Source: a bacterium
GTDB taxonomy: Bacteria; UBA10199; 2-02-FULL-50-16; JAJFLM01
Length of the DNA stretch: 64,000 nucleotides
Reading direction: 5' to 3'
NCBI GenBank assembly: GCA_965216315.1
Contig: CBDCFN010000016.1
Span: 1,920,001 to 1,984,000 of the forward strand
Positions within the stretch are counted from its first letter, which is position 1. Each line of letters begins with the position of its first letter. The notes under the pieces were generated by a model, which worked only from the letters and a program-made list of their open reading frames with translations, had not been told where the DNA came from and did not search any database. Below, piece after piece: positions 60,643 through 64,000 of this stretch. The position numbers and the translations under genes are program-made.

Positions 60643-60661
60643 AAAGCCAGTTCTTTGAATT

Positions 60662-60860
60662 GGGGGCGATTTGGGTTCGACGGAATCGCCAGAAATGACG
60701 ATAGCAGGTCGAGGTTGACGTCATAGGGGCTTGCGTCGCCCCCTCCGGAAGCAAAGCTTGCGGGCCGATCGCAGAGCTCTCGGCATCTGAGGCACCAGAG
60801 GTGCTGATCCAAGCCTCCCCTTCTCGCTCGCGTTGCTCGCTAGACAACCTCGGCAAAACA
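60662..60860 (+). pseudogene. Duplicated 5' segment of tmRNA interrupted by a dispersed repeat
   Basis: 60662-60717 matches 60965-61020 at 53/56 nt; pk1-like stem partner CAACCTCGGC at 60845-60854. Confidence 0.8.
60723..60843. repeat. Dispersed intergenic repeat (copy 2, longer core)
   Basis: Ends match 21109-21132 and 21150-21181. Confidence 0.75.
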
Positions 60861-60964
60861 TATAAGGTGTTCTTTGAAACGATGAGGGATTGTTAAGGGG
60901 GAGAGAGTTTTTCTTCCCCTTAACTAGAAGCCAATCCGAAGCTGCGCTTTCGGTTGGCTGCAAT

Positions 60965-61321
60965 GGGGGCGATCCGGGTTCGACGGAATCGCCAGAAGTG
61001 ACGATAGCAGGTCGAGGTTGTCCGAACCTTGTCTAAAACGGACACAGGCTATAAACGCCGATCATGATGCGCCTTTGGCGCTTGCTGCTTAATTAAGCGG
61101 CCGTCTCTTAGGTTCTTGTCTGCGGGATTTAATGAGACGCCATTTGCAGACTGGCTCAGAGGACATTGTCTTCGAAAATCTGGGTGAGAAACTCCGAAGG
61201 CTAGCGGCCGAACCCCTGTCGATGGGGAAACTCGGTGGCGAATCACTAATCATCGACTAAGCCTGTAGCGATCGTCATGGAAGCCTTCCGGACGGGGGTT
61301 CGATTCCCCCCGCCTCCACCA
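60965..61321 (+). ncRNA. ssrA: tmRNA
   Basis: GGGGGCG/CGCCTCC acceptor stem with G3-U, T-arm GGGGGTTCGATTCCCCC, ACCA end; tag ORF 61057-61092 ADHDAPLALAA*. Confidence 0.96.
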
Positions 61322-62762
61322 ATTGATAAGTGGTCGACGTTTTGCGAGCAGGGACCACGGCAAATGGTAGGAAAAGCGCAGGGTTTTGGCCGAAACGCGA
61401 AAGTTCGAGCCGATCTTTTTTAAGAATTCCTTTTGGGAGGAGTAATCGTCGCCACTCGCCAGCGGACCCGCTTGGTGAGCCGCCTGGAGGAATTCGAGGC
61501 AGGGTTCGAGCCAACCCATTGCCCCGGTCTCAAGGGCCGTCAGCTTTTCCTCTAAACGCACCTTCTGTTTCAATAATGATTCCTTCTTGGCTTGATACTC
61601 GACGCGATCGATGATGCCGTCGAGATGGGCGTCCAAGAGACGATCAAGCTTGCCCTGAATGGCCGGCATCTCCCGGTCGAATTGTTCCTTAAAGCGTGCA
61701 AGGGGTTGGCGAGAATCCTGCTGCTCCTTGGCCCACCACGCGATCATCTGTTGATAGGCGTCAGCCGGCAGAGCGACCTTTGCGATCGCGGTGCTGATTT
61801 GTTTGGCTAAGTCTTCCTCTCGGACAAAGGGCTCGGTACACGGGCCTTTCTTCTTGGTGCAGCGATAATAGTGATATTTCTTTTTCTGTCGCTCTGCCGT
61901 GATGGCGCCGTCACAATTGGCGCAACTCGCCAGGCCAAGAAAGGGAAATAAGTGCTTACGATGTTTGTGAGGCACGCCGCTCTTGGTCAGCAGACCTTGC
62001 ACCTTATCGAACAAGTCTTTCGTAATAATGGGTTCGTGGGAGCCCTGATGCCACTCGCCGGAGAACTCGAATAAGCCGTAATAGAAAGACTTGGTGAGGA
62101 TGCGATAAAGGGCGGCGTGCACAAGTGGCTTATTTTTGCGGCTCAGCAAACCCCACTCGGGCGCCATGCGCCGTAGATCCTCCACCGTATAGCGCCCCGT
62201 CGCGTAGGTCTCGAAGAGTTTCTTGATCAGGGGCGCTCGCTCGGGATCGATGACAACCTTTCGGGTCTTTTGGTCATTGTCGTAGCCCAAGGGTGCGACC
62301 CCCGGCCATTCCCCACGCCTTAACTTTTGGCGAATCCCGCGGCCGAATATTCTCCGAAAGGTTGTCCACGTAATACTTGGACTGCCCAAAGGCGATATTG
62401 AGCATAAATTTGCCTTGTGGCGTGTTTTCGAACCAAAAAGTCGGGAACTTAAGCGCCTTAATATGCTCAGTATCTAAAAAGTAAATAATCCGGCCGCCAT
62501 CGACGGAATTGCGCGCGAGTCGATCCGGGTGCCAGGCGATAATCCCTTGGGCCTCACCGCGTTCAATGCGCTCCATCATGTCATTGAAAATCGGGCGGCC
62601 GGGGACCTTGGCCGTCTTGGATTCGGTAAAAATTTCCTTAATTGTTAAACGTTCTTTTTCAGCGAAGAGTTTTAGTTCCGCGATTTGTGATTCAATTGAT
62701 AAGACCTGTCGCTCTTCGCTGTCGCTGGATTTACGGGCATAGAGAAAATACTGGGAAGACAT
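61250..62762 (-). pseudogene. Large serine recombinase (resolvase + recombinase + Zn-ribbon + coiled coil) with one +1 frameshift
   Basis: YARKSS, DRLARN, APLGY, HEPII, CANC..YYRC..C; extra C at about 62341 splits ENIR/RGIRQK. Confidence 0.88.
61316..61391 (+). repeat. Left arm of perfect 76-bp inverted repeat (starts in tmRNA CCACCA)
   Basis: Exact reverse complement of 62920-62995. Confidence 0.95.
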
Positions 62763-62919
62763 GGTCGACGTGCTATCGCCTTTGGGCACGCGTGGCAAAT
62801 TGGAAATGGCGCCTCCCCGCGAAGGCAAGTGCGATCGGCGCCCGGCGCCGTCAGGTGCCGGCCAGGCGTCGCAGGGACTTTAAATTTCCCGGAAACGAAT
62901 GGGGACTTTCGCCAGTGCA

Positions 62920-62995
62920 GGCCAAAACCCTGCGCTTTTCCTACCATTTGCCGTGGTCCCTGCTCGCAAAACGTCGACCACTTATCAATTGGTGG
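62920..62995 (-). repeat. Right arm of perfect 76-bp inverted repeat
   Basis: Exact reverse complement of 61316-61391. Confidence 0.95.
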
Positions 62996-63444
62996 TGCCT
63001 GTGGACCAAAATTCGAACTTGGTTTCAAGAAAATGCGTGACCGCGAGGCCACTTGCTGCAAAAGCCGCGCCGAGCGGTCACTAAATGACTATTCCACAGG
63101 CACCTTCCCGCCACGCGCTCGTCACGGCTTGTGCAGCCCCGTGTGCCTCTCGTGCCGCCGCTTGGCCCAGCGCCGAGCCCCTGGCTACACAAGGCCTGGG
63201 CATCCGCCAGCCCCCGCACATAAAGCTGCCCAGGCCGGGGACGCAGAGGGCTGGGCGGGAGGGTGTTAGCTAGTAATGGACAATTTTTCGCCACCCGGAA
63301 GCGAGGCGCTGAAAAAGTATATAGAAATGATGGAGAATTTGTTGATTAAATAGCAGGATATCATGCCATATGTAGCAATAGCATGAAGATGTACATCAGA
63401 CTTACTAAGTATTTGACTATGGCCAACCAAAATACGGGGTTGCT

Positions 63445-64000
63445 ATGACGGTTATGAGCATTTTAGCGGGTATAATCGCCCTCTTAATTCTAGTCGTATT
63501 GAGCAACATTGCCAGTGCGGTACGAGGAAACAGACAGGCCATGGAATCAGCTTGCTCAGATATCAACGATAAAATTGGTGAGCTTAATAATATCTTATAC
63601 GAAATAAAAACCGCATCAGAAGAACTACTAGATGTGATCAAGACGGTAAGTGAAACTATGTATAATATGGAAGAAAAGACTCATGAACCGATCGTTGATA
63701 TATTTGGCCCTAATAACTTCCATACAATGTCTAATGATGAAAGGGAAAGCGTCAGCAGTGAGCTAGAAAAGAAAATTTCTGAGAACAAGACTTCGCAAGA
63801 CGAATTAGAAGATTGGATCAAAAGCTGGATCATATTTTTTTCACATACGTCATATATTTACGAGATTTTATCTAAAAAGGATCTTTTGAACAATGTAAGT
63901 CCCGAAACAAAGGAATTGCTTCAAGAGCGTCATGAACAAGCTCAAATGTTTGTTAAAGTAGTTGGTGAACTGAAGAATGGCAGCGATTTAAATAAGGTAG
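63445..64000 (+). CDS. AT-rich hypothetical protein with N-terminal TM helix, truncated by the window edge
   Basis: Hand translation MTVMSILAGIIALLILVVLSNIASAVRGNRQ..., open to the window end. Confidence 0.7.
   Translation, partial: MTVMSILAGIIALLILVVLSNIASAVRGNRQAMESACSDINDKIGELNNILYEIKTASEELLDVIKTVSETMYNMEEKTHEPIVDIFGPNNFHTMSNDERESVSSELEKKISENKTSQDELEDWIKSWIIFFSHTSYIYEILSKKDLLNNVSPETKELLQERHEQAQMFVKVVGELKNGSDLNKV

Follow-up and report, generated by a model that had tools for sequence, protein, structure and literature searches.

The recombinase gene at the tmRNA gene

A transfer-messenger RNA (tmRNA) gene, ssrA, and a large serine recombinase (LSR) gene converge near the end of the 64,000-nucleotide stretch of bacterial DNA analysed here as a whole and called the window (G000:C16:1920001-1984000), in a host genome of 2.96 Mb assembled in 16 contigs. 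The recombinase gene lies between two inverted repeats and forms part of a longer segment, of 7,493 bp, the right end of which falls past the end of the window; positions there are given in the numbering of the locus, L008, or as window-equivalents (L008 4239-8393 is window-equivalent 64239-68393). The features are listed in Table 1. In an earlier sequence-only reading of this stretch, the gene was described as a self-inverting cassette bounded by two perfect 76-bp inverted repeats. The repeats are indeed found at the positions given there, matching at 76 of 76 positions, and they form the perfect core of a slightly longer pair (61307-61391 and 62920-63004; 85 nt, 95% complementary in a self-comparison). 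A pair of this length is beyond chance, because the next longest inverted pair within the same 5 kb has only 17 nt. The intactness of the tmRNA gene was confirmed, and predictions of open reading frames (ORFs), ARAGORN and Rfam agree with the earlier description in two further respects: the repeat encodes the last conserved residues of the recombinase, and the 3' end of the tmRNA gene reads CCACCA.

The recombinase has the domain set of the LSRs, with matches to the Pfam families Resolvase (PF00239; 1.2e-17), Recombinase (PF07508; 1.3e-12) and Zn_ribbon_recom (PF13408; 2.3e-10), and its N-terminus, YFLYARKSSDSEERQ, agrees with the consensus of its family. Matches to the NCBIfam families XisF and CcrB are far under the cut-offs. 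The gene is split over two frames (ORFs 62762-62274 and 62389-61250) by one extra base at 62341-62342, and the copy present here is probably inactive owing to this frameshift. A contig of the public sequencing run X3 lacks the extra base (at L008 2341), so that the frame is continuous there, and the gene must therefore also occur in intact form. The downstream ORF is antisense to the tmRNA gene and ends in tmRNA antisense, as had been described, with the residues ...AKTLRFSYHLPWSLLAKRRPLINWWRRGESNPRPEGFHDDRYRLSR. The last 21 codons of the recombinase come from the antisense strand of the tmRNA gene, the frame running through the left arm to ...INWWRRGESNPRPEGFHDDRYRLSR. On the plus strand, the right arm encodes the identical 25 residues, after which the frame continues into CLWTKIRTWFQENA and stops at 63040. 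The alternative C-terminus predicted for a flipped gene is thus present as an ORF, which ends ...AKTLRFSYHLPWSLLAKRRPLINWWCLWTKIRTWFQENA.

Three attachment sites and an empty site

A second inverted pair abuts the first (62989-63147 and 68657-68815; 159 bp, 95%), and the two pairs bring together three sites with the same 4-nt core, CCAC. The first site consists of the tmRNA end, CCAC and a P' sequence, and the second, on the minus strand, consists of a P sequence, CCAC and the same P' sequence, whereas the third consists of the P sequence, CCAC and a new flank. These sites are therefore attL, an intact inverted attP and attR, respectively. They delimit an element extending from window position 61316 to 68808, in the order attL, recombinase, inverted complete attP, Avs2 cargo and attR. 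Its gene content is limited to the recombinase, a 242-aa ORF and Avs2, an anti-phage STAND NTPase. The proposal of a stand-alone invertible cassette is not upheld by this structure: the 76-bp repeat is made of the P' arms of attL and of the second, spare attP, and the true ends, at 61316 and 68808, are an ordinary attL and attR with a 4-nt core.

The empty site was found in public sequences. Logan contigs from the runs X1, X2 and X3, none of which holds more than 0.30 of the sampled words, were compared over L008 500-11000, and contigs were found that join L008 1315 to 8809, with 7,493 bp skipped and 4 letters fitting both sides. The depth at this joint is 9.5 in run X1 and 5.07 in run X3, and the downstream flank in the empty-site runs has 0 differences to the reference over L008 8809-11000. 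The boundaries of the element are real, because these contigs join the tmRNA end straight to the far flank.

Table 1. Positions of the features of the tmRNA locus and of the element inserted there, in window numbering unless L008 is given
Feature	Position	Strand	Source or match
tmRNA gene (ssrA), integration target, intact	60965-61321	+	ARAGORN; Rfam RF00023, 170.4 bits, E 1.2e-68
Large serine recombinase gene	61250-62762	-	ORFs, Pfam, 984 homologues, alignment
tmRNA T-loop box GTTCGA	61298-61303	+	
4-nt core CCAC common to attL, spare attP and attR; crossover within or beside the core	61316-61319	+	public joint; three-site alignment
Left arm of the 76-bp repeat: core and P' arm of attL; minus strand encodes the last conserved recombinase residues	61316-61391	+	
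15-nt perfect inverted repeat	62774-62788 / 62383-62397	.	self-comparison pair I2
Right arm of the 76-bp repeat: core and P' arm of the inverted spare copy of attP; distance to the start codon of the recombinase, which lies downstream, 157 bp	62920-62995	-	
P arm of the spare attP; includes the codons of the native tail (62996-63040, + strand) and forms the left arm of the second repeat	62996-63147	-	
T-loop-like box TCGAAC in the spare attP	63013-63018		
Start of the AT-rich cargo segment, reaching window-equivalent 68656	63148-64000	.	
242-aa ORF in the cargo	63445-64173		no family matched
Avs2, 1,384-aa anti-phage STAND NTPase, main cargo	L008 4239-8393 (window-equivalent 64239-68393)	-	PADLOC E = 0; NCBIfam NF041813, 1230 bits against a cut-off of 1000
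attR	L008 8657-8812		

Related elements and the surroundings of the tmRNA site

A database search with the C-terminal part of the recombinase (E <= 0.001) returned 984 relatives among 4,509 candidates. The genomic layout was compared in two sets of loci: 80 loci on contigs from a collection with one genome per species, and 35 metagenome loci with a full match (47 metagenome loci in all). Loci were informative for the repeat with at least 300 bp of upstream DNA in the former set and with enough upstream DNA in the latter. The sequence-only reading had suggested looking in homologous recombinases for an inverted copy of their own 3' end upstream of the gene, and such a copy is present in 70 of 75 informative loci, nearly all of them at tRNA or tmRNA genes. 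It was found in 63/80 of the one-genome-per-species loci (46/50 of those with at least 300 bp upstream) and in 24 of the 25 metagenome loci with enough upstream DNA. Repeat-bearing relatives include an isolate (L037, Schleiferia thermophila DSM 21410) and a closed genome (L088). A tRNA or tmRNA gene on the opposite strand overlaps the 3' end of the recombinase gene in 58 of the 80 loci, and a convergent one is present in 57 of the 72 loci in which the contig continues for at least 150 bp past the gene. The metagenome loci with enough downstream DNA have a convergent tRNA gene in every case (25/25; 20 inside the distance window and 5 just outside). The element at the tmRNA gene has the layout of this family: the recombinase gene converges with the tmRNA 3' end, a complete inverted attP lies upstream of it and the two inverted pairs abut.

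The arms were measured in the 93 loci with the repeat, the two sets being pooled for this purpose and for orientation. Their median length is 91 bp; they are 100% identical in 56 loci and at least 95% identical in 90. A second repeat around the cargo is present in 21 of the 39 loci examined, with its copy 0.8-5 kb further on and a median length of 104 bp. All three junctions were read in one of the relatives, L031, and follow the same attL, attP and attR logic. The 12 loci without a called tRNA gene were searched with Rfam, which detected group I introns beside the recombinase 3' end in two of them (L021 6821-7085 and L088 7100-7373) and nothing else; the targets there are probably intron-bearing tRNA genes. 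Element sizes in the family range from 2.6 to 7.5 kb, and no transfer genes were found in the family elements examined. No gene is common to all cargo segments; an ORF of 67-73 aa encoding a helix-turn-helix protein (XRE-like, by eye) is present in 8 of 21 and is not found in the element described here. The search of metagenome contigs yielded no close relative, with at most 42% identity in full-length matches (47 loci, single-protein query). A phage integrase family was sought in a collection of 2.9 million viral contigs and rejected as an identity, all 37 loci found having 22-31% identity.

The C-terminus encoded by the spare attP is also conserved in the family. A tail motif (hydrophobic-x-x-x-[IVA]-R-T-x-F) is encoded by the spare copy in 46 of 63 related loci, and at least 7 of the 17 spare copies without it are cut by a contig end. 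In the element described here, the frame is likewise open from the conserved residues into the tail CLWTKIRTWFQENA. What had been called the alternative C-terminus is the native end of the recombinase, because the tail motif is conserved across spare copies; this end is lost on integration and survives only in the spare attP. The R-T part of the motif overlaps the T-loop-like DNA box, with the Arg codon being CGA in 44 of 46 copies, and codon entropy in the tail is 1.10, 0.89 and 1.39 for the three codon positions, third positions varying most. Both a constraint on the DNA and a constraint on the protein seem to act on this region. An alignment of 21 homologues shows homology stopping at a conserved ...PW...NW, followed mostly by peptides antisense to tRNA 3' halves, and homologues of 480-520 aa typically end in antisense-tRNA peptides such as RRGRDSNPRY. 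When classified by pattern, the tails of the 120 homologues listed comprise about 92 of the antisense-tRNA type, 8 native-like tails and 20 that are of other types or very short.

The two kinds of half-site differ in register. In this element, the T-loop box lies 12 nt from the arm end in the tmRNA gene and 17 nt from it in the spare attP, and in 51 of the 54 loci with both boxes (out of 93) the distance from the arm end is greater by exactly 5 bp for the T-loop-like box of the spare attP than for the box of the tRNA gene. For the LI integrase, the motif bound by the zinc-ribbon domain (ZD) has been described as lying 5 bp further in in attB than in attP (Rutherford et al., PMC3783163). The short core and the 5-bp register found here are those of serine integrases, the comparison covering tRNA-like half-sites only. 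The shift suggests that this recombinase family reads the universal T-loop of tRNAs and tmRNA as its ZD motif, and that the spare site is, judging from its register, a true P-type half-site. Recognition of the T-loop as a ZD motif would account for the use of many different tRNA genes by a single family of enzymes.

Further features were noted in the neighbouring sequences. Within 60656-60960, 62 bp of the tmRNA 5' end are repeated (92%) at a distance of 303 bp upstream from the real tmRNA gene, and the sequence between this copy and the gene (60718-60960) consists of short repeats that recur at numerous genomic positions. The 96% tmRNA variant on contig C2 and in public contigs lacks the 60656-60960 insertion. 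Right after attR, a second AT-rich stretch (L008 8809-10660) encodes a 293-aa ORF (weak HATPase_c match) and a 119-aa ORF, and this stretch may be an older island. It is followed by a region, L008 10664-10872, with 85 bp that are 88% identical to the DNA just 3' of the tmRNA gene in a genome from a different genus of the family. In both genomes, the final ~15 nt of tmRNA are repeated after the 85-bp stretch; next in the genome studied here comes an 89-bp fragment (84%) of a related recombinase gene. These pieces are left over from earlier traffic at the tmRNA site. An Rfam search of L008 8700-11000 gave nothing close to threshold, and the tmRNA flanks of 30 relatives, in which the native downstream flank was sought, are too diverged, at 72% at best. 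Elsewhere on the contig, about 530 bp from a tRNA-Gln gene, lies a P-arm remnant (G000:C16:2138771-2138832; 87% to 63002-63063) encoding a native-tail-like peptide with a stop, and this remnant probably marks where a sister element, since decayed, had its far end.

Interpretation and significance of the spare attP

The 76-bp repeat very probably belongs to an integrative element of 7,493 bp that was inserted by an LSR at the CCA end of the tmRNA gene, and that has its attP inside the recombinase gene together with a spare, inverted attP. The attP would lie within the recombinase 3' end, so that integration would swap the last 14 codons for tmRNA antisense and create attL. A second complete attP region, inverted and 157 bp upstream of the gene, retains at least 76 bp on the P' side and 159 bp on the P side, native tail codons included. 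Its P' half pairs with attL, giving the 76-bp repeat, and its P half with attR, 5.7 kb off, giving the second repeat, which encloses the Avs2 cargo. Direct observations are the three junctions, an empty site, the layout across the family, the 5-bp register and the conservation of the native tail; the LSR itself would have made the insertion, and the excised form would be a circle with two inverted attP sites. Several points weigh against this reading. No recombination has been directly observed, the recombinase copy present here is frameshifted, and the P' arms are perfect but the P arms only 95% alike. The empty site was seen in a close strain, which has the 96% tmRNA variant also present on contig C2, and thus demonstrates presence and absence with exact ends rather than excision in this strain; moreover, the tmRNA side of its joint has only 26 letters. 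The 8 native-like tails among the 120 homologues listed are a further difficulty, although they could be assembly paths through the repeat. Excision by serine integrases requires a recombination directionality factor (RDF), and no RDF was identified.

The sequence-only reading had also proposed a two-state switch: the 1.5-kb recombinase segment would alternate between stable orientations, with expression thereby coupled to tmRNA read-through and the C-terminus exchanged. The perfect 76-bp arms, and the fact that a flip would fuse the gene to the conserved native tail, fit such a switch. Nevertheless, a flipped segment, recognizable by a co-oriented tRNA gene by the upstream arm, is present in 0/93 repeat-bearing loci; the recombinase 3' end faces the tRNA gene in every one of them, whereas comparable occupancy of two states should appear in consensus assemblies. 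No strand-changing joints are listed in the public contigs, in which the depth of the recombinase segment is 0-2.5 and 31-letter unitigs are too short to phase a 76-bp repeat. A subgroup marker beside the spare attP, an exact 20-nt copy of the N-terminal coding part of the gene, bears on whether such segments can move: it is inverted and adjacent in 15 loci, but direct and at the far cargo end in L066 (4348-4367), as a flipped cargo would give. The opposite relative orientation of the L066 cargo favours the switch insofar as segments between such arms can, judging from this locus, change orientation. A second candidate for a flipped cargo, L087, was dropped, because at its far end (L087 812-1128) a P arm is attached to what is left of the 3' end of a different recombinase gene. 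At the rate of 1 flipped cargo in 19 marker-bearing loci, about 5 flipped recombinase segments would be expected in 93; their absence is suggestive, albeit with small numbers and related loci. A rare flipped state that is selected against or self-eliminating is compatible with the data. The arms are, furthermore, the attL and attP halves of a larger element, and an enzyme of about 500 aa with recombinase and zinc-ribbon domains does not correspond to an invertase of the Hin/Gin type, which is a small recombinase ending in a helix-turn-helix. The two-state switch was accordingly abandoned as very improbable. The probability that a fold-back or chimeric join in the assembly created the inverted copy is negligible. 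The genome is in 16 contigs, contig C2 carries a tmRNA strain variant and many related contigs break at the arms, which would be in keeping with an artefact, but the layout recurs in 70 of the 75 informative relatives, from many assemblies including those of the isolate and the closed genome, and contigs from X1 and X2 cover 62966-63147 and 62580-63141 with 0-1 differences. An assembly artefact, the outcome that would have undone the earlier claim of a real repeat, is thereby excluded, and the repeat looks functional.

Four possible roles of the spare attP were considered. One is a lock-and-key arrangement, which is put forward tentatively: clipping of the tail would disable the enzyme, and rare recombination between the P' arms would flip the gene, restore it and trigger excision. 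Host-driven recombination between the identical P' arms would put the gene onto the spare attP, and the flipped, full-length gene would then lie directly 3' of a strongly transcribed tmRNA or tRNA gene; flipped copies would remove themselves and so go unseen. Such a mechanism agrees with the conservation of the tail, with arms that are long and perfect and with the absence of a flipped state, although the count of 0/93 equally fits no flipping at all. If true, it would amount to direction control of a serine integrase without a separate directionality factor. Control at the RNA level, an idea raised in the sequence-only reading as well, is another possibility, and also a doubtful one. A promoter beyond the spare attP would yield a leader antisense to the 3' end of its own mRNA, and the duplex would silence or process the message; IS10, which is protected against outside transcription, is a comparable case. 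Promoter-like matches on the minus strand lie only beyond the spare attP (63345-63316, 63487-63460 and 63515-63487), with none between the arm and the start codon, in a scan that is weak (4 matches found against 1.8 expected). The 15-nt perfect inverted repeat also speaks for pairing of this kind, as it links the 5' untranslated region, at 12-26 nt ahead of the start codon, with codons about 122-127 of the coding region, and by estimate only ~0.01 such pairs would be expected by chance in 5 kb. In a subgroup, a 68-bp mosaic by the spare attP (L031 5274-5341, and at the corresponding position in 14 further loci) comprises exact inverted copies of three pieces of the recombinase locus that co-vary with their partners: a 20-nt piece from just upstream of the start codon, 28 nt that code for KNVGSNFIL and 20 nt that code for QTAKEPG. 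However, arm mismatches on the sense strand show no significant excess of G:T (32) over A:C (22; p = 0.22), with 30 other mismatches; pairing needs neither the P arm nor the repeat around the cargo, and a terminator-like minus-strand hairpin in the P arm (63052-63037) might stop the transcripts.

The spare attP might otherwise be a protein-binding site only, serving as an operator for autorepression or as a second usable attP for insertion of the circle. It is a complete attP with the P-type register, located between the likely promoter region and the gene. This role nevertheless seems improbable, given that about 50 bp would suffice for binding, a length that the near-perfect arms exceed 2 to 7 times, and that equal use of two attP sites would leave half of the insertions with an intact gene co-oriented with the tRNA gene, an arrangement seen in none of the 93 loci. 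Still less probable is a single-strand fold, in which the element, when single-stranded following DNA uptake or on the lagging strand, would adopt a dumbbell shape and the strand of the spare attP would splint the element ends at the core, so that the element could circularize precisely or be lost with no need for the recombinase. Comparable cases are the CTX-phage and integron attC sites, which are folded. A fold would explain the inverted spare copy, arms that abut exactly at the core and are far longer than a protein half-site (medians of 91 and 104 bp), the fixed orientation in all 93 loci and the lack of transfer genes, and mismatch repair of the stem would hold the arms identical. Ordinary gene conversion could also produce arm identity, however, and there is no sign that the elements travel as single strands.

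Elements with some of these properties are known. The invertases Hin, Gin and Cin are proteins of about 190 aa that act on 26-bp sites with an enhancer, and both orientations coexist. The element described here resembles Hin in having a serine recombinase gene between inverted repeats, but differs from Hin, Gin and Cin in that the enzyme is an LSR, the arms are halves of attachment sites and a single orientation is seen. In SSV1-type archaeal integrases and the integration-dependent immunity of mycobacteriophages, attP lies inside a gene of the element; these systems use tyrosine recombinases and are not known to keep a spare inverted copy. They are similar to the present element in that integration changes or splits a gene product, and unlike it in that a serine recombinase is used and a spare inverted attP is kept here. 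In phage-type large serine integrases, attP is, to our knowledge, not inside the gene, and there is no second inverted attP. The recombinase shares its domain set, short core and 5-bp register with such integrases (LI/A118, phiC31, Bxb1 and SPbeta SprA). It differs from them in targeting tRNA and tmRNA genes, as serine-family integrases were stated not to be known to target tDNAs in the Islander database paper of 2014 (PMC4383910). A preprint on tycheposons gives an LSR in 27 of 937 elements.

The closest parallel is provided by the ssrA islands of Dehalococcoides, in which the 3' end of dsiB is described as always overlapping with attL, with the stop codon outside the island, and for which the authors ask whether dsiB is fully functional only on the circle (McMurdie et al., 2011; PMC3146451). 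In both cases, a serine recombinase gene at ssrA, on the reverse strand, adjoins attL and overlaps it with its 3' end. As described in that paper, the Dehalococcoides islands are inserted in the T-loop, with a 20-bp ssrA direct repeat, and carry a six-gene module with a small recombinase, DsiA, whereas the element described here is inserted at the CCA end with a 4-nt core, and has a spare inverted attP but no DsiA. The term 'inverted' is absent from the main text of that paper (PMC3146451), and searches of the literature outside supplements and subscription-only papers turned up no account of serine-recombinase elements with a spare attP in inverted orientation. The element is a tmRNA-targeting member of a large and apparently unpublished family of serine-recombinase elements with a spare inverted attP.

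Serine integrases are major tools of genome engineering, and the control of their direction and their choice of target are active questions. In the family described here, the recombinase gene is cut by its own integration, and most relatives keep a mirror-image spare attP, the purpose of which is the interesting question. Small elements of this kind with defence genes such as Avs2 are also simple carriers by which immunity genes may pass from genome to genome, even between bacterial groups that differ widely.

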